Below are positions 2,679 through 20,701 of a stretch of DNA of 24,000 nt, one piece after another (position 1 is the first letter of the stretch; every line of letters starts with the position of its first letter). Origin of the DNA: Deltaproteobacteria bacterium (GTDB lineage Bacteria; Desulfobacterota; Desulfarculia; Adiutricales; JAGVGV01); NCBI GenBank assembly GCA_020056895.1, contig JAGVGV010000387.1, positions 1-24,000 on the forward strand, read 5' to 3'. The position numbers were made by a program, and so were the translations under genes. The notes beneath the pieces were generated by a model. That model did not search any database, was not told the DNA's origin, and saw only the letters and a program-made list of their open reading frames with translations.

Positions 2679-2701
2679 GTTGAGACAGGGGGAACGGTTA
2701 A

Positions 2702-3310: not shown

Positions 3311-3394
3311 CTCATATTCGGGCGATCACAGAATTCGGAAAAAATTGTACGCTAAGGCTCGGCCAGCACCCGTAGCGGCCGGAACTTGCCCTGC

Positions 3395-3817: not shown

Positions 3818-3836
3818 GATTTACTCCATAATTGTC

Positions 3837-3864
3837 AATATACGACATTTTTGGCACATTTCAA
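3837..3864 (-). promoter_or_regulatory. sigma70-type promoter for the AbiEi-like gene
   Basis: The minus strand reads TTGAAA (3864-3859), a 16-nt spacer, then TATATT (3842-3837), about 20 nt upstream of the SD/ATG. Confidence 0.45.
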
Positions 3865-3912
3865 CTAACAAATCTATAAGCTAAGCGGCGGAAATAGTTG
3901 ATTGTGGGTCGG

Positions 3913-3947
3913 AAAAAATAAAAAAGCCGGGTGGTCTGGTCCCGGCT
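3913..3947 (-). terminator. Rho-independent terminator downstream of ardC
   Basis: The minus-strand RNA has a 7-bp stem AGCCGGG/CCCGGCT with a 9-nt loop, followed by TTTTTTATTTTTT, immediately after the ardC stop (3956). Confidence 0.7.
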
Positions 3948-3955
3948 GGGGTCGT

Positions 3956-4738
3956 TTAGGCTGAAGGGGCAAGGATCAGCCCCAACACCTGCTCGACCTC
4001 GGACAATACCCGCATGCAGGCCGTCAGAGGGGACATGCCCGCCTTTTCGGCATAGCCCTCGATGTAGCGGTAGGAGTTGCCCAAGGTGTTCTTGGCCTCC
4101 TTGCCTACCATCCGGCACAGGGCCTGGGCGGACAGTTCGGCCACGATCTCCTGAAAGGGGTCCTGACCTGGTCGAAGGCGCCCCTTGACCTTCGCATGCG
4201 CGGCATGGGCCAATTCATGGAAAAAGACCGCTTCCTCCTGGCTGGCCAAGGCGATTTCTTTCCGGCCGGCCGAATAATACCCAAGGTATCGATAGTTCCC
4301 GGGCACGGCCTTCACGCCGATCCCCCACTCTTTGGCCTTTTCCATAAGGGGTAGATCAGGAACCTCGATCTGGCGATACGCCAGTTCTTGACCCTCGGTC
4401 TGCTCGTAAGCGAATACTGCTTTGACTCCGAACCCTGTGAGGAACCTAGCCTCCTCCTCTGTTTCTTCCTCCTGCCGTTTCTTGAAAAATGGCACGAGGA
4501 TGAAGATTCGGGCTTTCTCCCCTTTCTTGACGTACCGGCCGGCTTCGGTCCATTGCCGGAACCCCCTGGCGTCGGACGTTCCACCGATAAACATCAGAGT
4601 GCGGTTGAGCAGGGACCAGTTGGCCGAAGGGATGTCGTTGGCCGTCGGGAACATCGAATAGGCAACCGTTTCCGGAATGTCCCCGCTTTTGAACTGGCTA
4701 AGGATAGAAGTCAGGGCTGCATTGATTCGTGCGTCCAT
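3956..4738 (-). CDS. ardC: ArdC-like antirestriction protein (ssDNA-binding N-domain plus zincin HExxH metallopeptidase domain)
   Basis: The N-terminal pattern ANWSLLNRTLMF..FRQWTEAGRYVKKGEKARIFILVP resembles the ArdC/DUF1738 ssDNA-binding domain. The C-terminal part has FFHELAHAAH (HExxH). A GGAGG SD lies at 4743-4747. Confidence 0.72.
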   Translation of the reverse strand: MDARINAALTSILSQFKSGDIPETVAYSMFPTANDIPSANWSLLNRTLMFIGGTSDARGFRQWTEAGRYVKKGEKARIFILVPFFKKRQEEETEEEARFLTGFGVKAVFAYEQTEGQELAYRQIEVPDLPLMEKAKEWGIGVKAVPGNYRYLGYYSAGRKEIALASQEEAVFFHELAHAAHAKVKGRLRPGQDPFQEIVAELSAQALCRMVGKEAKNTLGNSYRYIEGYAEKAGMSPLTACMRVLSEVEQVLGLILAPSA

Positions 4739-4771
4739 AGTACCTCCGTGGCGGCGGTGGAATGAATTGAG

Positions 4772-4924
4772 GGCCAGACCGCCTTACCGGCCGACTCGTT
4801 CAGGGGCCAGCGCCAGGGAGCCCAAAGCAGTCACAGGTGTGGGCAATCCCGAAGGGTTGTCCATCGCCTTGACGGCTTAAGGGCTGGCGCTACACTGAAA
4901 GAGGTCGGCCAGGTGCGGTTGGCT
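4772..4924 (+). promoter_or_regulatory. Rod-like imperfect hairpin element (copy 1) carrying TTGACG-N16-TACACT in its 3' arm; candidate ssDNA (Frpo-like) promoter or structured leader for ardC
   Basis: Paired segments are GGCCGAC(4789-4795)/GTCGGCC(4904-4910), GCGCCA(4810-4815)/TGGCGC(4885-4890), GTCAcAGG(4830-4837)/CCTTGAC(4867-4873), and an apex CAAtCCC-gaa-GGGTTG. The -35 is TTGACG at 4869-4874 and the -10 is TACACT at 4891-4896. It is a paralog of 11467-11703, with compensatory stem changes between the two. Confidence 0.55.
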
Positions 4925-4983
4925 CGTTGGTTTGGGATTGAAAAAGACTATTTGAGGACTAGGCTTTATCCGCCTGGGCGATC

Positions 4984-4995
4984 GTTGCTTGCAAC
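4984..4995. promoter_or_regulatory. Operator-like palindrome GTTGCTTGCAAC (member of the GTTKC-NN-GMAAC family), upstream of the ardC leader
   Basis: A perfect 5-2-5 palindrome. It belongs to the same 12-bp family found at 12787-12818, 13352-13430 and 14793-14823. On the minus strand it overlaps a possible TTGCAA -35, with GATAAA about 18 nt downstream. Confidence 0.4.
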
Positions 4996-5019
4996 TGATA
5001 CTATAAAAATGCGCACATC

Positions 5020-5052
5020 ATATAAAACAGCCAACCGGTTGAGGGCTGGCTG
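5020..5052 (-). terminator. Probable rho-independent terminator after Uma2 gene 1
   Basis: The minus-strand RNA has a stem CAGCCA/TGGCTG (5052-5047 / 5033-5028) followed by TTTTATA. Confidence 0.45.
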
Positions 5053-5088
5053 AGGTTCGGCGGCGATCATTTCCCCAGAGAACGGCGG

Positions 5089-5655
5089 TTAATCCCCCCA
5101 CCAGAGATTGGCCAGATCGATTTCCACCTCTTGAAACGGCTCGACCCGGACTTTGTCCTTTTCGGAGTAATTCCCCATAACCACCCAAGCGCCGTCCTTC
5201 AGCTTGAAGGCCTCCAGAAGCCTGTTGAGGGGGTCAATAAGCCAGAGGTATGAGACGTTGTGCGCGGCGTAGATGGGCATTTTGCGCACTCGGTCGATCC
5301 GAAAAGTACTTGGGGACAGAATTTCGCAGACCCAATCGGGCACGACGGTTGTCCAATTGCCTACTGGCGGCGCCGGCAAGCGTTCCTGCCTCCAGCCGGC
5401 CAAGTCCGGCACAAGCAGGTTCTCGCCCAGCATTATCTCCACGTCAATAAGGATAATCCACCCACCAGGACCGCCATGCTTCCCGAATTGATACGGCGGC
5501 TTCAATTCGCTTCCTATCGCACTCACGGCATTTGAATGCCGGTAATGCGGTTTGGGGAAGGCATGCAGTTCGCCTTCGATGATCTCGCCGGTCATGTTCT
5601 CCGGCAGGTTATACAGGTCGTCATAGACGGCCTTGCGTTTGGCTGGCATGGACAT
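5089..5655 (-). CDS. Uma2-family (DUF820) PD-(D/E)xK endonuclease, paralog 1
   Basis: Family-typical motifs are present: GEIIEGELHAFPKPHYRHS, GGWIILIDVEIMLGENLLVPDLAGW, PDWVCEILSPST. It is roughly two-thirds identical by eye to the ORF at 17923-18498. Confidence 0.85.
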   Translation of the reverse strand: MSMPAKRKAVYDDLYNLPENMTGEIIEGELHAFPKPHYRHSNAVSAIGSELKPPYQFGKHGGPGGWIILIDVEIMLGENLLVPDLAGWRQERLPAPPVGNWTTVVPDWVCEILSPSTFRIDRVRKMPIYAAHNVSYLWLIDPLNRLLEAFKLKDGAWVVMGNYSEKDKVRVEPFQEVEIDLANLWWGD

Positions 5656-5783
5656 GAAGGCCTCCTTCCCGGGTGACGATAGACGATCAGGCCTATCGCC
5701 TTGTTAATGAACGAAAAACCTAACGATCTTATAAGTCCGGATCATCCTCCTTGAGCATAAACATATCTCCTTAGATTTATTAA

Positions 5784-5812
5784 ATAATAGGTTGATGCCC
5801 AGGTTTTGTCAA
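5784..5812 (-). promoter_or_regulatory. Near-consensus sigma70 promoter for Uma2 gene 1
   Basis: The minus strand reads TTGACA (5812-5807), a 17-nt spacer, then TATTAT (5789-5784). This leaves a ~125-nt leader before the ATG at 5655. Confidence 0.5.
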
Positions 5813-5836
5813 ATTCGTCGGACGCCCTCATCGCCT

Positions 5837-7087
5837 CTAGCACCGGAACCAGCAATCCCTCAGAAAAGTGCCCGCCGGGGTCGCTGGATCACCGTCAAAC
5901 GCCTTGCCCGAGCCGTTTTTTTCCTTTGCCCGTCCGTCCGCCTCCTTCTCTCCTGCCTCATGTTGTCCGCCCGCTTTGACTTTGGGCGGCGGGAAGGTCA
6001 GCACCTTATGAGCGGCCTTCCCGATCTGGACGTACGCTTCGTACGGGCTCAGCTTGAGGAAGGCTTCAGGGCGGAGCTGATATTCCTCGGCCATACGCCG
6101 GGCCTCGGCCGACCCGCAGTTGAAAACCACCTTGGCGTAGCAGTTCCCCAGGATGGCCGACAGAGTTTCCTTGGAAATTTGCAAGTGGCTCTGATGAGCC
6201 AGGGTCAGGCTGATATTGAACTTCCTAGCCTGGGCGAGCATTACGTCGAAAAACTCGGTGACGAAACTCTGAAACTCGTCCACGTACAGGAAAAGAGGCG
6301 GCGAGTCCGGGGTCGCCTGGTAGTGGAAATAGGACTTGATGGCATGGGTGACCAGGTTGCCCAGGTACACGATGGCTTCGGACCCGAGCCCGAACAGATT
6401 GAAGACCACGATCCGCCTGGCCCGGGCGATCCCGGCGATATCGAGCTGGTTCGGGCCGATCAGAAATGGCCGCAGGCTCTCGTCCTCGTAAAAAGCCGAC
6501 AGCCGGGCCCCTACCCGCTTGGCCCCGTCGATCTTTTCCTTGCTCACGAGCTGCCTGGTCTTGGGGTCCCGGTCGTCGAAGTATTGCCAGTACACCGGCG
6601 GCGTCCGGGTTTCGAAGTACTTGCGCCGAACCGGTTCGTAATTGAGGAAATCCGCCACTTCCTTGATGTCCAACCGGTCGGCCGGCAGGGCCAGGACCGC
6701 GTTCCGAATCAGCTCCTTGTGGAGAATGGTGGTTTCCTGGGTGGACGTGGTCGCCCGGACGCAGGCGTTGATCACCTCGCCCAGTTCGCTGGCAAGCTGG
6801 GATTTGGTCAGTCCCGCCCGATCCAAGGGGTTGATGACGATCGGATGATCCTTGTCCACGTAGGTCAGCCGGCCGGCCGGAGCCAAAGCGGCCACGGCCT
6901 CGGCCAGGCTGCCCACGGGATCGAGGACGATCACGGCGTGCCGCCGTTCCTGAACGAACAAATTGGCCAGAAACGTGGTCTTGCCGGTGCCCGTGGCCCC
7001 CAGGACATAAAGGTGCCGAAACCTCGCCCTGGGGTCGAGAACGGCCAGGCCCTCCCTGGCCACCAGCGGCACGCCGAGATCGATCAC
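5837..7087 (-). CDS. VirD4/TraD-like (type IV coupling protein-like) P-loop ATPase lacking an N-terminal TM anchor
   Basis: Walker A is GATGTGKTT and Walker B-like is LFLYVDEFQSF. TLAHQSHLQI matches the TraG-D_C-type QS..Q pattern. The GTG start overlaps the upstream stop (GTGA at 7084-7087). Confidence 0.78.
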   Translation of the reverse strand: MIDLGVPLVAREGLAVLDPRARFRHLYVLGATGTGKTTFLANLFVQERRHAVIVLDPVGSLAEAVAALAPAGRLTYVDKDHPIVINPLDRAGLTKSQLASELGEVINACVRATTSTQETTILHKELIRNAVLALPADRLDIKEVADFLNYEPVRRKYFETRTPPVYWQYFDDRDPKTRQLVSKEKIDGAKRVGARLSAFYEDESLRPFLIGPNQLDIAGIARARRIVVFNLFGLGSEAIVYLGNLVTHAIKSYFHYQATPDSPPLFLYVDEFQSFVTEFFDVMLAQARKFNISLTLAHQSHLQISKETLSAILGNCYAKVVFNCGSAEARRMAEEYQLRPEAFLKLSPYEAYVQIGKAAHKVLTFPPPKVKAGGQHEAGEKEADGRAKEKNGSGKAFDGDPATPAGTFLRDCWFRC

Positions 7088-7566
7088 GCCGTCGCCGGTA
7101 GTTTTTCAATATGATCCAAGCGCTCCATGATCTCCTGCCGACTGATGACCAGCTGGTCGTATTCCCGTTGCGCCTTGGACTTGTTGAGGGAATAGAAGAA
7201 AATCAGGTACACCAGCCACAACGGCAGGGTGATCGGCCAGAGAACGACCGACAGTCCGACGAACAGACAGCCGTTGATGGGAAGGATTTTGGGAAACTTG
7301 GGGATGGGCAAGGCGTTGTAATCCTTCTCCAGCCCCTTGATCATTTCATAATGTGGAATATCGGTCTCCCGTTGGAAGGCCAGCTTCACGTACCGCACGT
7401 CCTTGGTCACGCTGTAAAGGTTTTCCCCTCGAAGTTCCAAATGACTGTCCAGTTGCCGGACCTCCTGAGTGCTCAAAAGCTTCCAGTAAAAGCGGCTCAT
7501 GAGGTCGATCTGGGTCTGCTCGTCCTTGGGCGAACAGACAATGGTCTTGGCTTCGCTTCTGGCCAT
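7084..7566 (-). CDS. Membrane protein (160 aa) with a C-proximal TM hairpin, unknown function
   Basis: I place the start at MARSEAKT (ATG 7566), 8 nt after the upstream stop. The longer track ORF would overlap the previous gene. The hydrophobic segment is LPINGCLFVGLSVVLWPITLPLWLVYLIFFY. Confidence 0.6.
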   Translation of the reverse strand: MARSEAKTIVCSPKDEQTQIDLMSRFYWKLLSTQEVRQLDSHLELRGENLYSVTKDVRYVKLAFQRETDIPHYEMIKGLEKDYNALPIPKFPKILPINGCLFVGLSVVLWPITLPLWLVYLIFFYSLNKSKAQREYDQLVISRQEIMERLDHIEKLPATA

Positions 7567-7574
7567 GGCTACGC

Positions 7575-7817
7575 TTATACCAGCCGCCGGTTGTAGGATT
7601 TGACGGCCATGACCGTGCCGATCCCGGAACCGACCATGGTCACGAACCACAGCGGAAGACCCACGATGGCGAACACCCCCGAAAAAACCATCAACGCGGC
7701 CAGACAGGCCACCAGGAAAAAGACCACTGCCCAGCCGATTCGTCCGGCATAAATCAAGCCGGTCCCCGGCGCCAGCACCGCCAACACCGTCCCTACAAAA
7801 ACACTTTTTCGCTCCAT
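7575..7817 (-). CDS. Small (80 aa) multi-TM membrane protein, unknown function
   Basis: A strong AAGGAGG SD lies 8 nt upstream of the ATG at 7817. The protein is almost entirely hydrophobic (VFVGTVLAVLAPGTGLIYAGR.., VVFFLVACLAALMVFSGVFAIVGLPLWFV). Confidence 0.6.
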   Translation of the reverse strand: MERKSVFVGTVLAVLAPGTGLIYAGRIGWAVVFFLVACLAALMVFSGVFAIVGLPLWFVTMVGSGIGTVMAVKSYNRRLV

Positions 7818-7820
7818 GCT

Positions 7821-8729
7821 CTAATCCTCCTTTTCCTCTCGTTCCTTCTTGATCCGTTCAAAGTCGAAAACCGCTTTCTTGGCCGTGGCCGAGTCAATAT
7901 CGGCCTGGGCCTTCACCGACCGCTTTTCCTCCTTTTTGATCTGGGCCTCGGCCGACGCCCGGTCGGCCTGGGCCTTTTCCTTCTTGACGATGAATTCCTT
8001 GAGCTGCTCCTGCAGGTCGAAGTCCTGGAACTGGCTGCCGTGGGGATTGAAAATGGCCGACGTGATATAGGTTTGGAGGGTGGGCGGCAGTTCGGCGATA
8101 TCGATCGCTTCCAGGGCTTTCTTGATGAATTCGGCCCGGGCGTCGATTTCCCGGGTCGCGGTCTCGATCCGCTCGGTACCGGCCTGCTCGCCCTCGATCC
8201 GCGCCCGCGCCAATTGGTTTTCCCGCTCGACCGCCGCCCGGAGCTGTTCGATCTGGGCCATCTTGAGCTGGTTTTCCAGTTCCATGGCCTTGAGCCGCAG
8301 GGCTCGTTCCACGGCCGCGTCGTCCAGAGCCGCCAGCTCCACCTGGTGCCGCTTTTCCGCCATTTCGGACAAACGCCGGCCCTCGGCATCGACGAAATTC
8401 TCCTGCTCCCGGTACCGCTGAATGATCCGGGCCATCCGCTCCTGGGTCAGATAGACCTCGGCATTGAGGTTCAGGAGCGCGGAATTCATATCCCGAAGGT
8501 CCTCGATCTGCGCCAAGAGCGCCCGCATATGCTCTTCATCCAGAATGGCCTTCTCGTTCCCGCGCTTTTTCAGGAAAATCCAGCCCGGCCGCTTGGCGGC
8601 CAAGGTGCTTTTGAGCTGCCGGCCCAGCTCCACCAAATTAACCGTGGTAATGTCGAACACCGGCAAATCCGGCGGCGTCTCCCCGCTCTTCGCCGGCCAA
8701 TTGTTTTCGTGCGAATCGTCCATACTCAT
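7821..8729 (-). CDS. Coiled-coil protein (302 aa), unknown function
   Basis: I place the start at MSMDDSHE (ATG 8729), preceded by an AGGAGG SD and overlapping the upstream stop (ATGA at 8726-8729). It has long E/R/A/Q/K-rich, heptad-like stretches. Confidence 0.65.
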   Translation of the reverse strand: MSMDDSHENNWPAKSGETPPDLPVFDITTVNLVELGRQLKSTLAAKRPGWIFLKKRGNEKAILDEEHMRALLAQIEDLRDMNSALLNLNAEVYLTQERMARIIQRYREQENFVDAEGRRLSEMAEKRHQVELAALDDAAVERALRLKAMELENQLKMAQIEQLRAAVERENQLARARIEGEQAGTERIETATREIDARAEFIKKALEAIDIAELPPTLQTYITSAIFNPHGSQFQDFDLQEQLKEFIVKKEKAQADRASAEAQIKKEEKRSVKAQADIDSATAKKAVFDFERIKKEREEKED

Positions 8730-9445
8730 AATTCCTCCTGAAACGTCCAGCCCGGCCAGTTTTCCTTGAACGCGCCTATGCACCAAACGGAAAAACCAAA
8801 CTCCTCCGGCGGACACAATTCCAGCCGTAAAACCTTGGCCCAATGCCGCCAGAATTCGTCATAGGTTCGGGTATCCCGGGCCACGGTTTCGTACTTCCTC
8901 CGTTTTTGAAGCAGGTATTCTTTCCAGGCCGGTTTCTGCCGTTCGACTTCCAGAAAAACCAGCTTGGCCAAATGCTCTTTCCGCCAAACCACGGCGGCGT
9001 CCGGAATCAGGAATGCTTGCGCCTGTCCCGGCCGCTCGTAAAATTCCGGATAAAACACGGCGTAAAAATCCGGTTTTTTCATGATTTTGATGAGCGCGTC
9101 GGTATTATATTCGGCGTCCCGTTCGCCCGTTCCGGACGGCAATTTGATCCGCTGAACGTCGTACTCGCCCGGATATTCGGGTTCGGCGTATTGGGCCAAA
9201 AACTTCACGCTTTTGGCCGTGGCTTTGATCATTCCGGTCGGACTTATTTCCAGGTAACCCAGGTCGGCCAGCGCCTTGAGCTGCTTGAGGGTCGCGCATT
9301 TCCGCCGCCAGATTTCATCCTTAAAACCGGCCGCTAATTGCTTCGGAGTGACGTACCTGAGGGTGGCGATCGTCCAAAAGAGGTCGTAATAATTCTTCCA
9401 AGTCCTGGCCGGTCCGCCTTTGACCGGACTCAATTCCGCGCGCAT
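8726..9445 (-). CDS. Replication-relaxation (Replic_Relax)-like protein: N-terminal wHTH plus PD..E.E-type C-terminal region
   Basis: I place the start at MRAELSPV (ATG 9445). The longer N-terminus in the ORF track (SYG repeats) is just a translation of the CGTAAGAA DNA repeats. The wHTH-like segment is VTPKQLAAGF..LKQLKALADLGYLE. The core FLIPDAAVVW..LVFLEVERQKP resembles NPDGFFAL..YFFLEADTGSE of the clearer paralog at 13804-14778. Confidence 0.6.
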   Translation of the reverse strand: MRAELSPVKGGPARTWKNYYDLFWTIATLRYVTPKQLAAGFKDEIWRRKCATLKQLKALADLGYLEISPTGMIKATAKSVKFLAQYAEPEYPGEYDVQRIKLPSGTGERDAEYNTDALIKIMKKPDFYAVFYPEFYERPGQAQAFLIPDAAVVWRKEHLAKLVFLEVERQKPAWKEYLLQKRRKYETVARDTRTYDEFWRHWAKVLRLELCPPEEFGFSVWCIGAFKENWPGWTFQEEL

Positions 9446-9458
9446 GGCCCCGCCCACC

Positions 9459-9592
9459 CCGTAAGAATCGCCGCGAAACCCGTAAGAAAGGCCGTAAGAA
9501 AGTCGCCCGCGCCCGTAAGAATCGAGGCTCAATCTTACGGGCCGACCGCCGAAATTGTCAATCGTTATTTGAGGTTGCCGATTTTCTTACGG
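9459..9592. repeat. Array of six 8-9-bp sites CCGTAAGAA (four direct, two inverted) around the operon promoter
   Basis: Direct copies lie at 9459-9467, 9480-9488, 9492-9500 and 9513-9521 (spacing 21/12/21 bp). Inverted copies are TCTTACGG at 9533-9540 and TTCTTACGG at 9584-9592. Confidence 0.7.
9532..9561 (-). promoter_or_regulatory. Candidate sigma70 promoter of the five-gene operon
   Basis: The minus strand reads TTGACA (9561-9556), an 18-nt spacer, then TAAGAT (9537-9532). The -10 overlaps one repeat copy, and four further copies lie in the transcribed leader. Confidence 0.45.
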
Positions 9593-9903
9593 GGCTTTGT
9601 AAACCCCGCCAACCCCTCCTCTTCACCTTCCGGATTAAATCCCTTCTTCCCTGACCCTTCCCGCTCACGCGCCCTCGGGGCGCGGCCGCTTGCCGGCCTG
9701 CCTCCTTCCTTGGCTCCCGCCGCTCCTCCTCACCTCCTGGTGTTCTCCACGCCGCCTAAAAGGCGCATATCAACTCACGCCCTTCCTTCGGGGCGCCCGA
9801 GCACGCCGCCGGCGCACCCTTCGAAGATTTCCCGGGCGCAACTTTGTCCCCCCGTTTCAAACCGGGCATTTTTAAGGTGGTTTACCCGGCAAATACTTTT
9901 TTT

Positions 9904-9992
9904 AATATTCGTAAAGAGAAGTAAGTAAAAGTTGCCTGTCCGTCTTCGACCGGCCGAATACTTCTCTTTACGCATATTCAAAAGAAGTATTC
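9904..9992. repeat. Nested inverted repeats in an ORF-free region (oriT candidate)
   Basis: AATATTCGTAAAGAGAAGTA (9904-9923) pairs with TACTTCTCTTTACGCATATT (9959-9978) at 19 of 20 positions. GAATACTTCT (9956-9965) pairs with AGAAGTATTC (9983-9992). Confidence 0.6.
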
Positions 9993-10239
9993 AGGCCACA
10001 GCGTGCTAACCTGGTCTACACATCTAAAGCTTGCGAGCTATTACACTCCTTTCGCCGATGTATCACTGGCCCCAGTGATGTATCAAGAACGGAGCAATAT
10101 TCACTATGGCGTTGAAATTTCAAGCGGAGAAAATTGTAGTCTTGACTTTTTTCTTTCCGTTTATCCTCCTAGAAAAAAGTCATAGTCTCAATTTTTGGAG
10201 CGCGGAAACTTTCAAGAGTCCTTTATAAAAAGTCCGCAC

Positions 10240-10280
10240 AAAAAAAGGCCCCCTCTCCGCTTTCACGGTGAAGAGGCCCT
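10240..10280 (-). terminator. Probable rho-independent terminator after the 129-aa ORF
   Basis: The minus-strand RNA has a 9-bp stem GGCCUCUUC/GAGGGGGCC (two G-U pairs) followed by a run of 7 T. Confidence 0.45.
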
Positions 10281-10298
10281 TTCATTTTCCTGATCCAT

Positions 10299-10688
10299 TT
10301 ACTTCGCTTTCATGACGGCTGCGTCGTGTTCTTCTTTTAGCCCGTTATACTTCTTGAATCGGTCAAAGCGGTAGATGCTGACATAGCCGCTCATCGCCGT
10401 ATCCAACCGTCTGAATTCGTCTTTGATGTAGTTCGTATCCAGCTTCAAACTGCTTACTTCCTGCTCGGTCATATCAACTTTAACGATTATTCTTTCCAGC
10501 CGGCTGTCAATTCTGCTCATGTGATTATCCATTCTTTTGTCCAGCCGCTCGACTTCACTTTTCATTACGACCGCCAGTTCGTCAATCGCGTTATTCAAGC
10601 TACTTTCCACCCGGGCCGCTTCACTTTTAATCAAGGCAGCCAAATCATCAAGTGTAATTGGCTTTTGTTCTTTGTTGTTTTGAGTCAT
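10299..10688 (-). CDS. Small coiled-coil protein (129 aa), unknown function, low-GC
   Basis: An uninterrupted ORF with heptad-like E/K/R/L/D-rich sequence, followed by a terminator. No family motif recognised. Confidence 0.55.
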   Translation of the reverse strand: MTQNNKEQKPITLDDLAALIKSEAARVESSLNNAIDELAVVMKSEVERLDKRMDNHMSRIDSRLERIIVKVDMTEQEVSSLKLDTNYIKDEFRRLDTAMSGYVSIYRFDRFKKYNGLKEEHDAAVMKAK

Positions 10689-10748
10689 ATTATTATCGTT
10701 TAGTGAATAAAACTTCTACCTTCAGGATAGGAAAAATAACGGGCTTTG

Positions 10749-11240
10749 TCAATTCACCCGTTTTTCCTCATTGCCGTCTAGGTATGTTATCGCGGGTTTG
10801 CAGGAAAGATAGGATCCATCCGGCGCGACGATCACATGATCGGTCAGCTGAATGCCCAGAAGCTTGCCAGCGTCCGCGATCCGCCGAGTCAGCTCCAGAT
10901 CGGCCTCGGACGGCTCGACATCCCCGGACGGATGGTTATGCGCCAGGATGATGCTCGCCGCGTTCCGAAGAATCGCCGCCTTGAACACCTCGCGCGGGTG
11001 CACCAGGCAGGCGCTCAGGGTCCCGACCGCGACCAATTGCTGCCCCACCACCCGGTTTCTGGCGTCCAAGAGCAGACAGACCATGTTTTCCCGATCCGAA
11101 TCGGCGAAGGCTTTCATCCGGCAAGCCACGTCCTGGGCGCACGTCACGTTCTCGTACCGGGCCTCCGAGTCCTTGACCAGCTCCAGCCGGTAGACCGGCA
11201 CCCGGAGCGTTCGGTTTGTTTTCTTCATAGAGGTTTTCAT
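10749..11240 (-). CDS. radC: RadC-like JAB/MPN domain protein
   Basis: The JAMM motif ILAHNHPSGDVEPSEADLELT and the RadC-like core VVGQQLVAVGTLSACLVHPREVFKAAI are present. Confidence 0.9.
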   Translation of the reverse strand: MKTSMKKTNRTLRVPVYRLELVKDSEARYENVTCAQDVACRMKAFADSDRENMVCLLLDARNRVVGQQLVAVGTLSACLVHPREVFKAAILRNAASIILAHNHPSGDVEPSEADLELTRRIADAGKLLGIQLTDHVIVAPDGSYLSCKPAITYLDGNEEKRVN

Positions 11241-11244
11241 AGGG

Positions 11245-11430
11245 CTACCGCCTCGAGATCGAAACGATGCTCCACTCGGGCTGAGTGTGCGCCACGAATG
11301 AATGCAGGCAGTCCTCGGCTCGACCTTTTATATCCCGGGACCCCTCGCCTTCTTCGGCATAAGTCAGGACCAGCTCCTTGACCTTCGCGCCGTTTTCCAG
11401 CCGGATTCGATACTCTTGGTTGTTCGTCAT
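11245..11430 (-). CDS. Hypothetical 61-aa protein upstream of radC (orf61)
   Basis: The ATG is at 11430 and the stop lies 4 nt before the radC ATG. The composition is non-repetitive and protein-like, but the SD is weak. Confidence 0.4.
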   Translation of the reverse strand: MTNNQEYRIRLENGAKVKELVLTYAEEGEGSRDIKGRAEDCLHSFVAHTQPEWSIVSISRR

Positions 11431-11466
11431 ATGATTTTCGTTGACGGCTGTTGTTTAAATACCGGT

Positions 11467-11703
11467 GGCCAGGCCGTCTTACCGTCCGCCTGATTCCCCT
11501 GATGCGGCAGGGAGCCCAGGTTCGGTCAAGGTGTGGGTAACCGGCGGAGCGGAAGTCAGCCCGCCTTTACGGGTTCTTCGGCCTAAAGCCAAGGTTCAGT
11601 CAAGGCGGAATAGATGACTGGAGCGGAGCCGGTTATCCATCGCCTTGACGGGTTCTGGGCCGCCGCTACAATGGAAGAAGGCGGACGGTAAGACGGCCCC
11701 CGC
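11467..11703 (+). promoter_or_regulatory. Hairpin element copy 2 with TTGACG-N16-TACAAT in the 3' arm; candidate ssDNA promoter for orf61-radC and/or duplex promoter for the primase gene
   Basis: The outer stem is a perfect 19 bp (11472-11490 with 11680-11698). GTCAAGG (11525-11531) pairs with CCTTGAC (11643-11649). TAACCGG/CCGGTTA closes a ~95-nt insertion within the 111-nt apical domain. The -35 is at 11645-11650 and the -10 at 11667-11672. Blocks are conserved with copy 1 (CAGGGAGCCCA, GGTGTGGG, TCCATCGCCTTGACGG, CGCTACA). Confidence 0.55.
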
Positions 11704-11780
11704 CCACCCGGCCGGTACTCCCGAATTTGACTAAATATTCAATTTATTCAAGTATTTATATATAACCGAAAGGAGATGCT

Positions 11781-12782
11781 ATGACGACCAAAAACCACCC
11801 CGTCGATTTCAGGGACATAAAAAGCCGGGTCACCATGGAAATGGTGCTCCGGCGTTATGGTGTTTTCGACCGCCTGAAAGACCGGGGCGACAATCACACC
11901 GGCGTTTGCCCGATCCACGGCTCCGGCTCCAACCCGAACCAGTTTTCGGTCAGCCTGAAGAAAAACGTCTGGAACTGTTTCGGCGACTGCAAGGCTGGCG
12001 GCAATGTTTTGGATTTCGTGGCCAAGAAGGAAGGAGTCTCGATCCGGAAGGCGGCCCTCTTGCTCCAGGACTGGTTCGGATCATCAGCTTCGAGGTCAGC
12101 GCCGGCTTCCGACCCGGAACCGGCCAAACCGGCTCAAGCAAGACCGGCTAAAGAAGAAAGGCCGGTCTCGAACCCGCCCCTGAAATTCACCCTGAAAAAC
12201 CTGGCCGCCGACCATCCCTGGCTGGCCGAACGCGGTATTGACGCGGCCACGGCCGAGCATTTCGGCATCGGCTTTTTCGCCGGCCGGGGCATCCTTTCCG
12301 GCCGGATCGCGATTCCGATCTATAACCAGCGGGGCGACCTGGTCGCCTACGCCGGCCGCGCCGTAAACGAGGAACAAGCCAAGGCCGAAGGCAAGTACAA
12401 GCTTCCGGCCGGCTTCAACAAGTCCCTCGAAATCTACAACGGCCACCGCCTCGCGCCCGGCTTGTCGCTCGTCATCCTGGTCGAGTCCTTCCTTTCGGTC
12501 TGGGCGCTCCACCAGGCCGGCTTTCCGGCCGTGGCGGCGCTTATGGGATCAAGCCTTTCCGAGGCTCAGGCCGAGACCATCGCCGGGCTTCTGGGGCCGG
12601 CCGGACGCCTGCTCCTTCTTCTGGACGCGGACCCGGCCGGTCAGGCCTGCGCGGCCGACTGCCTGGCGCGCCTTGGCCATAAGGCCTGGGTGCGCGCCCT
12701 CGATCTCCGCCCTTACGGCCCCAAGCCGCACCAGCTCGCTCCGGATCAACTCCACGCCGTGATCGAAAACGCTTGCCAATAA
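11781..12782 (+). CDS. DNA primase, CHC2 zinc finger plus Toprim domain (DnaG/TraC-like)
   Basis: The zinc finger is CPIHGSGSNPNQFSVSLKKNVWNCFGDCKAGGNVLDFV. Toprim features are the LVESFLSVWALHQAG glutamate and LLLLDADPAG (DxD). An AAGGAG SD lies upstream. Confidence 0.85.
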   Translation: MTTKNHPVDFRDIKSRVTMEMVLRRYGVFDRLKDRGDNHTGVCPIHGSGSNPNQFSVSLKKNVWNCFGDCKAGGNVLDFVAKKEGVSIRKAALLLQDWFGSSASRSAPASDPEPAKPAQARPAKEERPVSNPPLKFTLKNLAADHPWLAERGIDAATAEHFGIGFFAGRGILSGRIAIPIYNQRGDLVAYAGRAVNEEQAKAEGKYKLPAGFNKSLEIYNGHRLAPGLSLVILVESFLSVWALHQAGFPAVAALMGSSLSEAQAETIAGLLGPAGRLLLLLDADPAGQACAADCLARLGHKAWVRALDLRPYGPKPHQLAPDQLHAVIENACQ

Positions 12783-12786
12783 CCCC

Positions 12787-12818
12787 GTTTCATGCAACTT
12801 TTTAGCGTTGCTTGAAAC
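12787..12818. promoter_or_regulatory. Operator pair GTTTCATGCAAC / GTTGCTTGAAAC between the primase and RHH genes
   Basis: Two 12-mers of the GTTKC-NN-GMAAC family at 12787-12798 and 12807-12818, 20 nt upstream of the RHH gene ATG. Confidence 0.5.
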
Positions 12819-12837
12819 ACCCGAAAGGAGTCATCCC

Positions 12838-13341
12838 ATGGGCATGACGGCCACCGAACGCTCGCGTCTGTGGCGCGCCAAACACGGCCAAAAAGGCGGC
12901 CGGCAATTGTCGGTCTGGATCGATGGCGACACCGCCCGCCGGCTGGATGAACTGGCCGCCGAATCGAGCGGCGCCCTATCCGACCTGATCGGCCAGGCCA
13001 TCGCCTTGCTCCACGAAAAAAATTTGAGCATCCCGCAACCACCCGTCATCCAGCCCAAGCTGGCCTTCGAAACCCCGGCCGAACCCAGCCTCCCGCCGAC
13101 ACCGCCGGAGCCAATCCCCCACCAGCTCCTTCAAAACATCCGAGCCAAGCTCGACCAGGGCGAAAATATCGCCGCCCTGCGGCCCCTCCTGGCCGCCGCC
13201 GCGACCAAACTGGCCGCGACGGGCTTGAGCGGGCGGAAAATCGCCGCGCTCTTCAACGAGGCCGGCCTGCCCACCTTTTCCGGGGCCGGCGGATGGGGCA
13301 AATCCACCGTGCTGCGCCTGTTGCAAGGAACAAGCGGGTAG
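12838..13341 (+). CDS. Ribbon-helix-helix (CopG/Arc-like) DNA-binding protein with a C-terminal HTH-like segment
   Basis: I place the start at ATG 12838 (AAGGAG SD 7 nt upstream) rather than at 12808 as in the track. The RHH-like segment is RQLSVWIDGDTARRLDELAAESSGALSDLIGQAIALL. The C-terminal RKIAALFNEAGLPTFSGAGGWGKSTVLRLL resembles the recombinase-type HTH. Confidence 0.62.
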   Translation: MGMTATERSRLWRAKHGQKGGRQLSVWIDGDTARRLDELAAESSGALSDLIGQAIALLHEKNLSIPQPPVIQPKLAFETPAEPSLPPTPPEPIPHQLLQNIRAKLDQGENIAALRPLLAAAATKLAATGLSGRKIAALFNEAGLPTFSGAGGWGKSTVLRLLQGTSG

Positions 13342-13803: not shown

Positions 13804-14778
13804 TCAATCAAGAATACTTAAAGCCTTGTCGTCCCGGCCGTTTCGCCAGAAATCGCCCAGGATCGCCGCGCCGTTCCTGGGATCGATCCGGGACTCGGGC
13901 GCGAAATAGAAGAGCCGGGTGCCTTTGCCCCGTTCGTCCACTTCCTTGTTGGCCTTGACCAGGTTGGCCACCCGCCCCGGCAAACGGGTCACGGTCAGGA
14001 CCCGGAAACCGTCCAGCCCCAGCGCTTTCCTGGCCGCGCCGTCCCGGGCCGTGGCCCAATACCCGAGCATTTTCTTGAAATAGGCGCTCCGCCGGAAATC
14101 CGCGTGGCTGAAGATCGGCTCGCTGCCGGTGTCCGCTTCGAGGAAAAAGTAGTCCCGCCGCTTGCCCGGCCATTTGCCCGGGTCATAGTCCAAGGCGAAG
14201 AATCCGTCCGGGTTCAGGGCCATGGTCAGGTCCTGGTTGTTGCGCCGGATCGTCACCGGCCATTTGATCCGGGTCTGGTGTCGGCGGCAGCGGGCCACGG
14301 CTTCCCCCGACAGGCTGGCCAGGAGTTCGGGCTCTTCCACCAGACGCACCCCGCCGATTTTGGCCAGGCCCGTTCGCAAGGCCACGAAAAAACCGGCGAC
14401 CATGAGCTGGTGGCTGACGAAATTATCCTTGGCGGCCCGGTTGTTCCGCGCCCAGTCGATCCGCCGGCGGACGGCCAGGCCCCGTTCCACCAGGCAGGCG
14501 TACCCGGCTTGGCCGAGAAAATAAACCAGCGGCCGGGAACCGCCGCCCGGCACGAATTCCTTGAACTGGCCCGGCCAGCGGTCGAGGTACCCGGCGTTGA
14601 ACAGGAGCATGAGCCGACGGCGCAGATTGGTGGGGCTGCCGCCCAGAAGGGCCAGGATGTGGTCGGAGTTCAGGGCGCGGTAGGAAAGGACTTCGCGCAT
14701 GATCCGGAGATCGCGGTCAGTGAGTTGGAACGGCCCGACGGCCGTGCGGGTGGCCAGGGGCCGGGATTTTTTGGGCAT
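13804..14778 (-). CDS. Replication-relaxation family (Replic_Relax) protein
   Basis: The family pattern is present: LTDRDLRIMREVLSYRALNSDHILALL..RRRLMLLFNAGYLDR (wHTH), SHQLMVAGFFVAL, and NPDGFFALDY..YFFLEADTGSEP. Confidence 0.8.
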   Translation of the reverse strand: MPKKSRPLATRTAVGPFQLTDRDLRIMREVLSYRALNSDHILALLGGSPTNLRRRLMLLFNAGYLDRWPGQFKEFVPGGGSRPLVYFLGQAGYACLVERGLAVRRRIDWARNNRAAKDNFVSHQLMVAGFFVALRTGLAKIGGVRLVEEPELLASLSGEAVARCRRHQTRIKWPVTIRRNNQDLTMALNPDGFFALDYDPGKWPGKRRDYFFLEADTGSEPIFSHADFRRSAYFKKMLGYWATARDGAARKALGLDGFRVLTVTRLPGRVANLVKANKEVDERGKGTRLFYFAPESRIDPRNGAAILGDFWRNGRDDKALSILD

Positions 14779-14998: not shown

Positions 14999-15837
14999 TC
15001 ATCGGGTAATTTTGGGTTGCCTTTGGCCGTCTCGACGCGTCCTGGGGCATTCTGGCGCGTTTGGCGGGTCACTTGTCAAAGGAAGGGGCCGCTTCCGGAT
15101 CGCCGTCCGGGTGTCCCCTCTCTTCGCCCAGGGCGTAAGTTTCTTTTGGCCGTTTGGCTTCCAGCCGGTTTTTGGCCTTGAACGATACGCTTGGCGGAAG
15201 CCGGTGGCGGATATACCGCCAGCCGGGCCGCTTCGGCCGCCGGTGAAGCCCGAACGGCCGTCGGCTTCGCGGTCGCGTTTTTTGAGCCTGGCTCAGAGAG
15301 TAAAGCCCGTAGCCGTCTGAAGCCGGTCGTTAAGCCTGTACCGCCAGGTGGCCAGTTAAAAAGCCGGGGTTCCGCTGTTTTGGCGGACAGCCGGTCCAAA
15401 GCCAGTGCCCGCCGTCACCAGCGAAGCGCGTGACCTCGCCCTTCTCACCCAGCCGGTCAGTCCTCGGCCGCCCAGTGGCGGTTGAGGGCAGGCTGGGCGC
15501 AAGCTCGGCCAGCGCCGGTTGCCGTCCCTCGTTTAGGCGAGGGGGGGCAACTTGAGGCGAGTAGAGGACGAGGGGGAAGGGCGAGGTCACGCGGTAGCGG
15601 GACGGCGGGCAGGCAGTTCGACCGACCGGTAGGCGGGCTTCTCAAGCCGGCAATCGCCGGCACGCCCTTTATCTCTAAGTGGCGATAGACACTTCAAGCC
15701 CGGCGGTAGCCGGTTGCTTTGTTATCAATCCGGGAACGGGCGGCGAACTTTCGCCGCTCGTGTTAAGCCCAGTCGGGAATGAGTCCGGCAGCGGTTACGG
15801 GGGGTGTAGTTTTTGCTATCTGGATGATGGGTTGACA

Positions 15838-16005: not shown

Positions 16006-16116
16006 AAAAGTCATCATCATCAATTCTTTGGCTGTTGGAGAAAGCCATTTAGTTAAGTATACCTCCTAGGTTGGTACAGATGATGATGACTTTTAATTAC
16101 TTTTAATTACTTTTAA
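16006..16116. repeat. AT-rich origin-flanking structure: 16-bp inverted repeat plus 2.8 tandem copies of ACTTTTAATT (candidate DNA-unwinding element)
   Basis: AAAAGTCATCATCATC (16006-16021) pairs with GATGATGATGACTTTT (16079-16094). Tandem 10-mers run 16089-16116. Confidence 0.6.
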
Positions 16117-16149: not shown

Positions 16150-16375
16150 AGGGTGCGAAATGCGACATCCTTGGGACGAACTACGACAACTTTGGGACGA
16201 AATGCGACTATTTTGGGATGAAAAATGGGTGAAATGCGACAGTTTTGGGACGAAATGCGACTATGGTATGGAATTGTCGTATTTGGTTCAAATGCGACAG
16301 TTTTGGGACGAGTGAAATGAAAAAACGGTATGGCGATGATATGCGACAATGGCATTGACTAATCGCATTTCATTG
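16150..16375. repeat. Iteron array of a theta-type origin (oriV)
   Basis: The core AAATGCGAC occurs at 16158, 16200, 16232, 16253 and 16290. Two perfect 18-mers TTTGGGACGAAATGCGAC lie at 16191-16208 and 16244-16261. Degenerate copies are at 16171-16187, 16302-16319 and 16341-16349. Inverted copies are at 16276-16284 and 16363-16370. The array sits directly upstream of the rep gene. Confidence 0.8.
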
Positions 16376-16411: not shown

Positions 16412-17887
16412 ATGTTTAATAAAACAAACGCATCCAAGGGGGGTGATTTCATCCTTACCATTGAAACCCTGAAAAAAATCGAAGACGGCCACAAGGTGGT
16501 AACCGGCAATGACCTCATTATCAAGGCCCAATTGCCGGTTTTAACTGTGCAAGAGCAGCGGCTTGTCTTGTATATGCTGGCCATGGTGGAACAGCATGAT
16601 GAAGACTTCAAGACCTATGCGATCTCCATAAAAGAGTTGAAAAAGGTGTTAGAAGTCACTAGCCAGAATATCTATAAGGAGTTTGAAAAAGCCACGGATG
16701 GCTTAATGACCAAATTGATAAAGTGGATAGAAGCACCCTACACTGAAGACGAGGAATTAAAAAAAGTGGCCTGGTGCTCGTTTGCCGGGGTACGGCGCGG
16801 CTTGGTCAAGCTTCGCTTCGACCCAGCTTTGAAACCATTCCTCCTCGATCTTAAGAATAATTTTACACAAATGGAATTACGGGCGGTTATAAGGCTCAAA
16901 AATCATTATTCGCTAAGGCTCTACCAGTTTATCAAGTATTGGCAAGGGCATTATAAAAGCAACTCAGCGGCTGTTCAAATTGACTGGCTAAAGCAATATT
17001 TAGGAATTCTGCCGACCGAATACACCCGGTTTAATGATTTTATAAAAAAACTAATAATACCGGCCCAGAAAAATATTGCTGAAGTAACCGATATTCAATT
17101 TACCTTTGAAGCCAAAAAGGAACCAGGGAATCGCAAGCATACCCAAATTGAGTTTACTTGGGAAAAGAACCCCCGGTACAATCAACTTTCCCTATTTACC
17201 CCGGAAATGGAACGGCAGTTTTTAAGACAGGAGAGCGAAGCGGAAGGCGGTATTTCACTGGATCAACCGCCTATCGAATTCGATAACCCGCTCGCCAATG
17301 ATCTAATCGCCGCCACGCAAATCGGCTCAGAAAAGGCCTTGAAGCTGCTATCCCTTCATGGTGAAGAGATTATAAAAACAGCGATTGAGGATTTGAAAAT
17401 CATCATCGCGGTGAAAAAGGAACGTGGCGAGGATATGCCCAATCCAGCCGGTTATTTTCAATCATTGCTACCCAAAAAAGGAGAAAAATACCAGCCATCA
17501 AATTACTATCTTTTGCATAAAAAAAAGGAACAAGAAGAAAAACGAAGAAAAGAGAAAGAAGAAAAAGCCAGGCAAGAAGCGGAAAAAGTCAGACGGGAAG
17601 AATGGCTTAAAAGACAGTATGAAGCGTATATTGACAGCGGAATCGCAACCTTTAAAGCTACGCTTTCCGCCGAAGAATTAAGCGACTCTGAACAACGGGC
17701 AAAAGAAGAAGTTGATAAAATGGATGGTATAGAAAACCTCCGCCGTTTTGGAGTTGAAAAGACATTTATAAAAAGCAAATTGAACCAAATTATTCGGGAA
17801 AAAGCCGGGCTTCCTTCCTTCGAAGAATGGCAAAAACAAGTAGCTCAAAATAACAAGACAAAGAAGGCTATGAAAAACCCCAATTAA
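16412..17887 (+). CDS. Rep_3-type (RepB/RepE/pi-like) plasmid replication initiator with a long C-terminal extension
   Basis: N-terminal family pattern: GNDLIIKAQLPVLTVQEQRLVLYMLAMV..DFKTYAISIKELKKVL and LKNHYSLRLYQFIKYW. Iterons lie upstream. At 491 aa it has a K/E-rich coiled C-terminal half. Confidence 0.82.
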   Translation: MFNKTNASKGGDFILTIETLKKIEDGHKVVTGNDLIIKAQLPVLTVQEQRLVLYMLAMVEQHDEDFKTYAISIKELKKVLEVTSQNIYKEFEKATDGLMTKLIKWIEAPYTEDEELKKVAWCSFAGVRRGLVKLRFDPALKPFLLDLKNNFTQMELRAVIRLKNHYSLRLYQFIKYWQGHYKSNSAAVQIDWLKQYLGILPTEYTRFNDFIKKLIIPAQKNIAEVTDIQFTFEAKKEPGNRKHTQIEFTWEKNPRYNQLSLFTPEMERQFLRQESEAEGGISLDQPPIEFDNPLANDLIAATQIGSEKALKLLSLHGEEIIKTAIEDLKIIIAVKKERGEDMPNPAGYFQSLLPKKGEKYQPSNYYLLHKKKEQEEKRRKEKEEKARQEAEKVRREEWLKRQYEAYIDSGIATFKATLSAEELSDSEQRAKEEVDKMDGIENLRRFGVEKTFIKSKLNQIIREKAGLPSFEEWQKQVAQNNKTKKAMKNPN

Positions 17888-20661: not shown

Positions 20662-20676
20662 GGTCGTGGTTCCTTG

Positions 20677-20694
20677 ATGTCGGCGCGCCGACAT
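20677..20694. promoter_or_regulatory. parS-like 18-bp perfect palindrome between the phd-like gene and parA
   Basis: ATGTCGGCGCGCCGACAT, 16 nt upstream of the parA ATG. Confidence 0.5.
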
Positions 20695-20701
20695 TGGATA
20701 A

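Follow-up and report, generated by a model that had tools for sequence, protein, structure and literature searches.

The DNA analyzed here is a 24,000-nt stretch (the window) from a Deltaproteobacteria bacterium, positions 1 to 24,000 of contig JAGVGV010000387.1 read on the forward or + strand. It carries two long imperfect inverted repeats, hairpin 1 (4772-4924) and hairpin 2 (11472-11698), which are candidate single-stranded DNA (ssDNA) promoters. Between them lie a candidate origin of transfer (oriT) and a mobilization operon that starts with the gene for a 239-aa protein. The gene map was built from a listing of open reading frames (ORFs) and from Pfam and NCBIfam scans of about 30 window ORFs. 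A 32,874-bp contig is on record with an identical copy of the 239-aa protein, and the window is probably the visible 24 kb of a mobilizable Rep3 plasmid about 33 kb long. Look-ups with the exact sequences of RadC and of both versions of the 239-aa protein retrieved no contig. About 9 kb of the plasmid lie outside the window, and all negative statements on gene content given below refer to the 24-kb window. All credible genes between 3.4 and 11.7 kb are encoded on the minus (-) strand. An initial annotation had proposed that the hairpin promoter, the leading genes, the oriT candidate and the transfer operon share a single orientation. This was borne out, and all of these features were found at or near their proposed positions; the interpretation built on them is supported in part.

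Hairpin 2 has arms at 11472-11508 and 11662-11698. Its predicted DNA fold is -81.8 kcal/mol on the + strand (z = -8.6) versus -78.7 kcal/mol on the - strand, and that of hairpin 1 is -52.1 kcal/mol (z = -7.0) versus -45.1 kcal/mol. Both are long, stable, imperfect stem-loops formed from one DNA strand. The + strand of the right (3′) arm of hairpin 2 reads TTGACG-16-TACAAT (11645-11672), with the -35 box at 11645-11650 and the -10 box at 11667-11672. Hairpin 1 reads TTGACG-16-TACACT, with the -35 box at 4869-4874 and the -10 box TACACT at 4891-4896. The right arms of the two hairpins have a common 54-nt block, which is 81% identical, and the hairpin core pattern has exactly two matches in the window, both on the + strand, when 0.03 is expected by chance. 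If a promoter is rebuilt in folded ssDNA, the -35 and -10 boxes read 5′ to 3′ must sit in the 3′ arm, with the -35 box nearer the loop and the -10 box nearer the base. Because the + strand hexamers are in the 3′ arm, transcription would run leftward through the base with the 5′ flank as template and would express minus-strand genes. The base is 34 nt from ardC at hairpin 1 and 42 nt from orf61 at hairpin 2. Thus, the geometric reasoning that a folded hairpin drives minus-strand genes back toward oriT is correct. In both hairpins, the sigma-70 boxes are 16 nt apart and lie in the arm that is non-template for the gene past the hairpin base, and all relatives described below have this geometry. 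The reading of the hairpins as ssDNA promoters is well supported computationally.

We compared hairpin 2 with 72,556 PLSDB plasmids by blastn in distant mode, and obtained no match and therefore no homology to the known ssDNA promoters Frpo and ssi in that search. PLSDB is expected to include F-like and IncI1 plasmids. A megablast search of positions 3300-12000 against PLSDB gave one unrelated 64-nt match and no relatives. Relatives were instead gathered through homologues of the 239-aa protein and through a scan for the hairpin core. Strict hairpin patterns recovered nothing in the early loci, and a relaxed pattern did. One relaxed-pattern match, that in Anaeromicropila (L014), lacks a hairpin and is probably due to chance. 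The hairpin-bearing sequences form seven independent contigs: the window, L001/L002, L003/L004/L005/L019, L015, L016/L022, L017/L018/L020 and L021. The metagenomic bins that contain relatives are labeled Desulfurivibrionaceae and Deltaproteobacteria, and the hosts are uncultured and apparently anaerobic bacteria.

When gene order was mapped by tblastn, the relatives showed a conserved arrangement. A Replic_Relax gene is followed by a primase gene of opposite orientation, by between one and four hairpins with a gene each, by the motif CAGG(G)CAACT and by the 239-aa gene, after which come two or three small genes and a gene for an ATPase like type IV coupling proteins (T4CPs). The genes that follow the hairpins in relatives encode RadC, DUF2958, a 110-aa protein and small ORFs. 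Across at least 14 hairpin copies, the promoter arm is always on the strand of the primase gene, opposite to the 239-aa gene. Nearly all copies are 30-60 nt upstream of the start of a correctly stranded ORF, and most copies in relatives sit between the primase gene and a conserved long inverted repeat. The DnaG-like primase gene bounds the leading segment in all relatives. Tandem hairpin copies are present in L003, L015, L016 and L020; as double-stranded DNA (dsDNA) promoters, they would point antisense into genes. In the 3.7-kb contig L021, three hairpins of the same orientation are found at 1-25, 2640-2790 and 3300-3445. This contig begins inside a hairpin, and assemblies appear to break at these repeats.

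We aligned 10 hairpin copies and analyzed 32 pairs of the RNAalifold consensus with 500 shuffles and with slid controls. The copies have a variable apical insert. In the consensus, the -35 region and the spacer are paired, and the -10 box and the following GGAAGAAG are in a conserved internal loop. Standard pairs were formed in 88.4% of the cells versus 77.6 ± 1.2% in the shuffled alignments (0/500 reach the observed value) and 39-50% in the slid controls. Changes on both sides were observed in 14 pairs versus 7.7 ± 1.7 after shuffling (again 0/500), and the slid controls gave at most 8. Conservation is highest in the -35 and -10 hexamers, which stay fixed as the stems covary. Furthermore, the promoter-arm strand has 46 G·T pairs versus 7 A·C pairs. 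The covariation and this 46:7 excess indicate that the selected fold is that of the window + strand. In the window, the 15.4-15.6 kb element represents another class of structured element, and this class shows the same strand bias in four of four plasmids, which independently supports the idea that the + strand exists in single-stranded form. Consequently, the proposal that the + strand is transferred, which we infer from sequence, is supported by the comparative data and by the strand bias of both element classes, and we consider it likely.

The ORF nearest to hairpin 2 is orf61 (11245-11430, - strand). Among 5.8 billion protein clusters it matches only itself, it has no Pfam or PHROG match, no clear Shine-Dalgarno sequence was seen by eye, and in L021 the RadC gene follows the hairpin directly with no orf61. 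Whether orf61 is a real gene is doubtful. The main cargo of hairpin 2 is the next gene, which encodes a RadC-like JAB-domain protein (10749-11240, - strand; PF04002, E = 1e-40; PHROG 10276, E = 1e-42), and RadC fills the equivalent slot in L001 and L021. The coiled-coil protein ORF129 (10299-10688, - strand) adjoins the oriT candidate; by eye, L001 has a similar coiled-coil ORF in this slot. A promoter scan found a sigma-70-like minus-strand promoter, TTGACA-17-TATCCT, for ORF129 at 10752..10724, so that read-through from the hairpin is not necessary for its expression. Thus, of the proposed leading set orf61-radC-ORF129, radC stands as a putative hairpin-driven gene, orf61 is an unsupported ORF and ORF129 has its own promoter. 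The terminator proposed at 10240-10280 is present at 10240-10279 (- strand), with a GC-rich stem followed by U7 and an RNA fold of -30.4 kcal/mol. Because several of its stem pairs are G-U, the stem is specific to the minus-strand RNA. Downstream of hairpin 1, the gene for an ArdC-like anti-restriction protein (3956-4738, - strand) has an ArdcN match, a match to a PHROG anti-restriction family (E = 9e-8) and a HELAH metalloprotease motif, and by eye a GGAGG sequence lies 5 nt ahead of its ATG. The hairpin cargo is of anti-defense or establishment type, namely ArdC, RadC and DUF2958.

The long inverted repeat at 9892-9991 (oriT candidate A) has a stem of about 35 bp and a loop of about 35 nt (z = -6.4). 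Its loop contains CAGGCAACT at 9930-9938 on the minus, gene-sense strand, the sole such match in the window. At the corresponding place, L001 and the L003 group have a 7-bp hairpin followed by CAACTGCAA, and the motif CAGG(G)CAACT is common to the window and the relatives. The repeat is equally stable on both strands, as expected of a duplex or cruciform protein site. Long inverted repeats with related half-sites are found at the same position in L001 (9518-9653) and L010 (8958-9095). Between the repeat and the body of the 239-aa gene there are six CGTAAGA repeats (four direct, two inverted; 9460-9591). All copies in the window are within these 132 bp, which span the promoter and the start of the 239-aa gene, and a minus-strand promoter, TTGACA-18-TAAGAT at 9561..9532, overlaps them. 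CGTAAGA-type repeats also precede the homologous gene in L001, L003 and L010. The repeats are probable binding sites of the 239-aa protein. The resemblance to a MOBC-style oriT is one of architecture, that is, an inverted repeat and six short repeats upstream of the 239-aa/T4CP operon, with the binding putative. In the relatives, hairpin genes always adjoin the predicted leading side of the candidate A-type repeat, the motif and the CGTAAGA-type repeats, and hairpin 2 does likewise. Comparison of the gene order relative to oriT in related plasmids, as suggested in the initial annotation, therefore placed these genes on the predicted leading side in every case. Candidate A is favored because the hairpin genes abut its leading side in every relative and because the T4CP-like gene is linked to the 239-aa gene and not to the gene for the 324-aa protein discussed below. 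The support for an oriT at 9.9-10.0 kb, as proposed, is thus positional, coming from conserved position and architecture, and it faces a rival at 15.41-15.61 kb; we judge the prospects of a nick at 9.9-10.0 kb to be evenly balanced. The adjoining stretch at 10021-10240, between the candidate and the terminator, is AT-rich (about 40% GC) with predicted structure above average on both strands. It contains an inverted repeat (10130-10154/10171-10195) and a direct repeat GATGTATCA around a CACTGG..CCAGTG palindrome (10057-10088).

The operon on the other side of candidate A comprises the 239-aa gene (8726-9445), a coiled-coil gene (7821-8729), two small membrane-protein genes (7084-7817; by eye) and the gene for the T4CP-like ATPase (5837-7087), all on the - strand. 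The ATPase matches TrwB_AAD_bind (E = 2.7e-10), TraG-D_C (E = 4.7e-5) and DUF87, all above the Pfam cut-offs, and so has the TrwB all-alpha/DNA-binding and TraG-D_C domains of a coupling protein; the NCBIfam VirB4, VirD4 and TraD models match it only far below their cut-offs. We regard the plasmid as mobilizable: it has its own T4CP-like ATPase, and the visible part has no mating pore. The four-gene module is conserved in L001, L003, L008 and L010. In L008 (1-5763) it is at the edge of a 113-kb contig, beside integrase-like and housekeeping genes (FAD synthetase, ArgJ), which indicates that the module also exists in an integrated, mobilizable-island form.

A structure model of the 239-aa protein (pLDDT 92) has a winged helix at the N terminus and an alpha/beta nuclease core at the C terminus. 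Fold matches were weak (E ≥ 0.02) and consistent in kind: FokI, MarR-type regulators, HamA, MspI, SwaI and the nickase N.BspD6I. All of 69 family members have P148, and at least 90% of them retain D149, E166 and E168. On this model, the protein appears to combine a winged helix with a PD-(D/E)XK core that has conserved acidic residues. The family is small and sharply bounded, with 115 representatives (50% identity) among 1.84 billion proteins. The 239-aa protein has no Pfam, NCBIfam or PDB sequence match, and tblastn against PLSDB found nothing. PF13814 (Replic_Relax) is a helix-turn-helix plus PD-(D/E)XK family that corresponds to the MobC relaxase class of CONJscan; 12 of the 69 members reach it (best E = 3e-9). 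When the 69-sequence profile was compared by hhalign with the plasmid's PF13814 paralogues, the alignment was collinear from the winged helix through PD...ExE (E = 0.0013, probability 18%). Direct comparison of the 239-aa and 324-aa proteins, by BLASTP and by hhalign of 12 against four sequences, was not significant, and hhalign against the TraX homologue of pAM373 gave a weak match in the winged helix only (E = 0.004). The proposed relaxase-like character therefore stands as a remote relation to PF13814 through the family, the protein itself having no Pfam match. We regard the 239-aa protein as a candidate MOBC-like nickase or relaxase, a remote Replic_Relax relative whose membership in MOBC is remote and unproven.

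Taking these features together, we propose the following model. The recipient would receive the + strand. The nick would be made in or beside the 9892-9991 repeat, most likely by the adjacent 239-aa protein docked on the CGTAAGA repeats, in the way that MOBC relaxases are bound to direct repeats some distance from the nick site (nic). Entry would be 5′ to 3′, and hence the 10.0-11.7 kb segment would enter first. The incoming strand would then fold at 11472-11698 and rebuild a sigma-70 promoter, in which the -35 box TTGACG and the spacer are paired and the -10 box TACAAT is in an internal loop. Host RNA polymerase would leave through the hairpin base toward the nick, transcribe radC (preceded by orf61, if this is a gene) and possibly ORF129, and stop at the 10240-10279 terminator. 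Hairpin 1 may do likewise for ardC, entering late on the same single strand. The mobilization operon beyond the repeat, which points away from it, would enter last. Our confidence in this model as a whole, + strand transfer from a nick at candidate A with the hairpins as ssDNA promoters for leading genes, is divided about equally.

Several observations weigh against this model. The duplex form of the hexamers matches the promoter consensus at 10 of 12 positions and might be active. The middle hairpin of L021 faces the 3′ end of an opposite-strand ArdC gene and so drives no gene, which fits, by analogy with Frpo, an added role in priming. As the initial annotation had recognized, candidate A leaves hairpin 1 and ardC on its trailing side; a second oriT or a cointegrate had been invoked to account for this. 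The F plasmid (about 100 kb) is internalized in about 2.9 min. At such a rate a 33-kb strand would be complete in about 1 min, and any hairpin could fire before the complement is made. Thus, neither a second oriT nor a cointegrate is needed for hairpin 1 and ardC. On the protein side, the 239-aa protein gives no match to PF13814 even at E ≤ 10, its link to that family being remote, and the scans of the window ORFs found no match to a HUH relaxase-helicase or to an F-type type IV secretion system (T4SS). In addition, anti-defense genes of pAM373 are downstream of the relaxase gene: AcrIIA9, PcfJ and ssb genes (L023, 8756-16863) follow the traX homologue on the same strand, which is the relaxase side of oriT. 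Samuel et al. (2024) reported no enrichment of anti-defense genes in the leading region for MOBC, and MOBC was dropped from their survey. The pAM373 layout and that report together mean that F-type polarity is not the rule in the nearest known family. The pAM373 layout may explain the absent enrichment if "leading" is defined as the side away from the relaxase. The last of these observations concerns the 324-aa protein, which is the only clear PF13814 member in the window and is accompanied by a conserved, strand-biased, perfect-stem repeat, an equally conventional place for oriT.

This protein (13804-14778, - strand; MOBC-type Replic_Relax, PF13814 E = 4.7e-18, 66.4 bits versus a cut-off of 25.3) is a second candidate relaxase, and its gene leads to an alternative in which the + strand is likewise transferred and the same hairpin promoters are used, with the multi-branched structured element at 15410-15610 (+ strand) as an oriT nicked by the 324-aa protein. 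We consider this alternative unlikely, albeit one to be taken seriously, and a nick at 15.4-15.6 kb is likewise improbable in our estimation. No other stretch of the window is as strongly structured as this element (-79.3 kcal/mol, z = -9.9, on the + strand versus -65.3 kcal/mol on the - strand). It is closed by a perfect 18-nt inverted repeat with internal hairpins, which resembles the nested perfect repeat of the pAM373 oriT. Its counterparts upstream of the Replic_Relax gene in L001 (1135-1250), L003 (4399-4504) and L010 (3385-3465) have perfect stems, compensated changes in their arms and a bias to the equivalent of the window + strand, and a relaxase gene that points away from 15410-15610 also predicts the + strand as the transferred one. 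If this were the origin, Rep3, Uma2, ParBA and Res would enter first, the hairpin-driven genes would come near the end, and the 9.9-kb repeat with the CGTAAGA sites would serve the 239-aa/T4CP operon as an operator or accessory site. However, all hairpin-driven anti-defense genes would then be at the extreme trailing end in every relative, which is odd for a conserved layout. Moreover, the T4CP-like gene adjoins the 239-aa gene and not the 324-aa gene, inspection by eye showed no regular cluster of short direct repeats beside the element, and a single-strand initiation site would explain its strong strand bias no less well than a nick region. The 324-aa gene is kept beside the Rep3 and primase genes in relatives, and its place by the vegetative origin (oriV) and Rep3 makes a replication role possible. 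A tblastn search with the 324-aa protein against PLSDB gave one match, in Bradyrhizobium.

The other alternatives concern the hairpins. They may be mainly priming signals for the complementary strand, used by RNA polymerase as at Frpo or by the plasmid DnaG-like primase, with expression secondary or absent. The first description of Frpo gave it the dual role of promoter and source of primer RNA, the primase gene flanks the hairpin cluster in every relative, there are several copies per plasmid, and the middle hairpin of L021 lacks a gene to drive. Nevertheless, almost every copy is 30-60 nt ahead of an ORF start on the correct strand, and the conservation peaks at the -35 and -10 boxes with sigma-70 spacing, which fits RNA polymerase rather than a DnaG-type primase. 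We find this view improbable, and it would alter the purpose of the hairpins and not the polarity. Alternatively, the hairpins may be uninformative on polarity, being ordinary rightward dsDNA promoters with palindromic operators or small inverted-repeat mobile or repeated elements, with the shared orientation reflecting operon organization. TTGACG-16-TACAAT is indeed a good dsDNA promoter, in hairpin 2 it faces the primase gene at a distance of 100 nt, the elements recur both within a plasmid and from one plasmid to another, as dispersed repeats do, and long runs of co-oriented genes are common in plasmids. However, a dsDNA promoter would fire antisense or into nothing at hairpin 1, at the tandem copies and at the middle hairpin of L021, and inspection by eye gave the primase gene a conserved promoter of its own, TTGAC(A/T)-17-AAnTAT, between hairpin and gene (11727-11755 in the window; also in L021 and L003). 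We therefore rejected hairpin 2 as the promoter of the primase gene, and these two observations argue against ordinary promoters. The covariation of stems around fixed hexamers and the invariant orientation also count against this view, and the G·T excess is not expected of a feature that acts only as duplex DNA; we give it little credence. It should be mentioned that the folded molecule could be a + strand RNA instead of ssDNA, perhaps one that regulates the leading genes in antisense or serves as a leader for replication or primase genes. The G·T bias would then be G-U, which stabilizes RNA more than G·T stabilizes DNA, and control RNAs are often found in the region 5′ of iterons and rep, which is where the 15.4-15.6 kb element lies. 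Against this, an Rfam scan gave no match, also for that element, no + strand promoter was noticed left of the hairpins (none listed in the scanned region; hairpin 1 by eye only), the conserved hexamers are inside the structure and not upstream, and an RNA spanning a whole hairpin would have to start within the coding region of the neighboring gene. We consider the RNA explanation very improbable. Building on the preferred reading of the hairpins as ssDNA promoters, one can also imagine a strand-state switch, in which folded ssDNA fires leftward into anti-defense genes and the duplex fires rightward, toward the primase gene and, where hairpins are in tandem, antisense to the upstream leading genes. 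This idea is speculative and rather unlikely. The same applies to its extension that the early program would be shut off and replication functions fed, so that, with two PD-(D/E)XK nickases and two structured origins, the plasmid would have a self-timed establishment circuit; we regard that as a doubtful proposal.

Apart from the mobilization region, the window has typical plasmid genes. On the far side of hairpin 2 are the + strand DnaG-like primase gene (11781-12782; Zn_ribbon_DnaG and Toprim, TIGR01391) and a 177-aa ORF (12808-13341, + strand). Five iterons of about 21 bp (GGGACGAAATGCGAC...) at 16152-16311, just 5′ of the Rep3 gene (16412-17887, + strand), mark the vegetative origin, and an AT-rich stretch at 16006-16094 contains the repeat AAAAGTCATCATCATC/GATGATGATGACTTTT. 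The ParB and ParA genes (19040-20832, - strand) each contain one copy of the perfect 19-nt palindrome AATGTCGGCGCGCCGACAT, at 19343-19361 within the parB ORF and at 20677-20695 within the parA ORF; these are probably parS-type centromere sites. The cargo at the window edges comprises a type III restriction Res-like helicase-nuclease (20985-23954, - strand) and, at 48-3310, an RHS-repeat protein (48-2678, + strand) and the next 202-aa ORF. The downstream part of the RHS gene and this ORF have about 38% GC, a pattern typical of a swapped toxin tip with its immunity gene. An AbiEi-like gene is at 3395-3817 (- strand), and a tRNA scan was empty. Two genes for PD-(D/E)XK-like Uma2 proteins (5089-5655 and 17923-18498, both - strand) are 67% identical in protein and 73-78% in DNA and are the sole sizeable duplication in the window. 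Duplicated Uma2 and Replic_Relax genes had been taken to indicate a cointegrate of two modules. The Uma2 duplication is clear, and the Replic_Relax pair is recognizable only at the level of remote homology. The cointegrate has no evidence beyond the two Uma2 genes and is dropped.

The hairpins, conserved with covariation, appear from their sequence to be a new family of promoter sequences unrelated in sequence to Frpo, that is, a known kind of element in a new variety. In published surveys, ssDNA promoters are detected by BLAST with Frpo/ssi queries, both known and putative, and thus by similarity to those sequences. Here, the transferred strand of an environmental plasmid could be predicted from its sequence alone, and an F-like layout appears to be made from unrelated parts. 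If this is correct, anti-defense expression from the entering strand would be a general solution beyond the IncF/IncI lineage, and hairpin orientation together with G·T bias would give a sequence-only call of the transferred strand and narrow the search for oriT in uncharacterized plasmids. The PD-(D/E)XK family of about 115 clusters would then be a candidate new branch of MOBC relaxases. If the strand-state switch also exists, the circuit would belong to a MOBC-like mobilizable lineage, in a class reported to lack leading-region enrichment of anti-defense genes.

The closest functional parallels of the hairpins are Frpo1 and Frpo2 of F and the ssi1-3 or class 1-3 ssDNA promoters of ColIb-P9 and pESBL (IncF, IncI1). 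In these and, as predicted, in the window, a long imperfect hairpin of the transferred strand rebuilds the -35 and -10 boxes directly upstream of leading genes templated by the transferred strand, transcription is toward oriT, there are several copies per plasmid, and the cargo is of anti-defense or establishment type. In contrast, the window hairpins have no blastn similarity to anything in PLSDB, and their activity is predicted. The backbone also differs, with Rep3, MOBC-like proteins, no T4SS seen in the window and uncultured hosts. Furthermore, one window copy, hairpin 1, is far from the candidate oriT, whereas hairpin 2 and all hairpins in relatives adjoin it on the predicted leading side.

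The mobilization region can be compared with the MOBC modules of pAD1 and pAM373 (oriT2-TraX-TraW) and of CloDF13 (MobC/MobB). These share with the window, where relaxase and oriT are candidates, a winged-helix plus PD-(D/E)XK relaxase, not an HUH relaxase, and an oriT formed by a large inverted repeat close to short repeats and to the relaxase and T4CP genes. The known relaxase binds direct repeats tens of base pairs or more from nic: pAD1 TraX, a winged-helix protein, binds five direct repeats 70-120 bp from nic and has no detectable covalent intermediate. In pAM373, which is related to the prototype pAD1 and is typed MOBC by MOB-suite, the TraX homologue scores 27.1 bits on PF13814, and the oriT region between the T4CP and traX genes has a nested perfect inverted repeat (14392-14533) and direct repeats of 12-bp period (14552-14629). 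CloDF13 is mobilizable yet carries its own coupling protein. Its record showed no obvious MobC among the listed ORFs, the PLSDB mob annotation being patchy, and it was not used in the comparison. The window differs in gene order (oriT, relaxase-like gene and T4CP versus T4CP, oriT and traX in pAM373), in the distance of about 300 bp between the CGTAAGA repeats and the inverted repeat, in a 239-aa protein that misses the PF13814 threshold and in the presence of two paralogous PD-(D/E)XK proteins.

Compared with F-like (MOBF) plasmids, the window has no TraI/TrwC-type relaxase, TraM/TraY, T4SS genes, ssb or psiB. The F-like layout recognized in the initial annotation stands as to polarity: leading genes point toward the oriT candidate and transfer genes away from it, all with one template strand. 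The resemblance to F is therefore best taken as an analogy of layout, not of ancestry.

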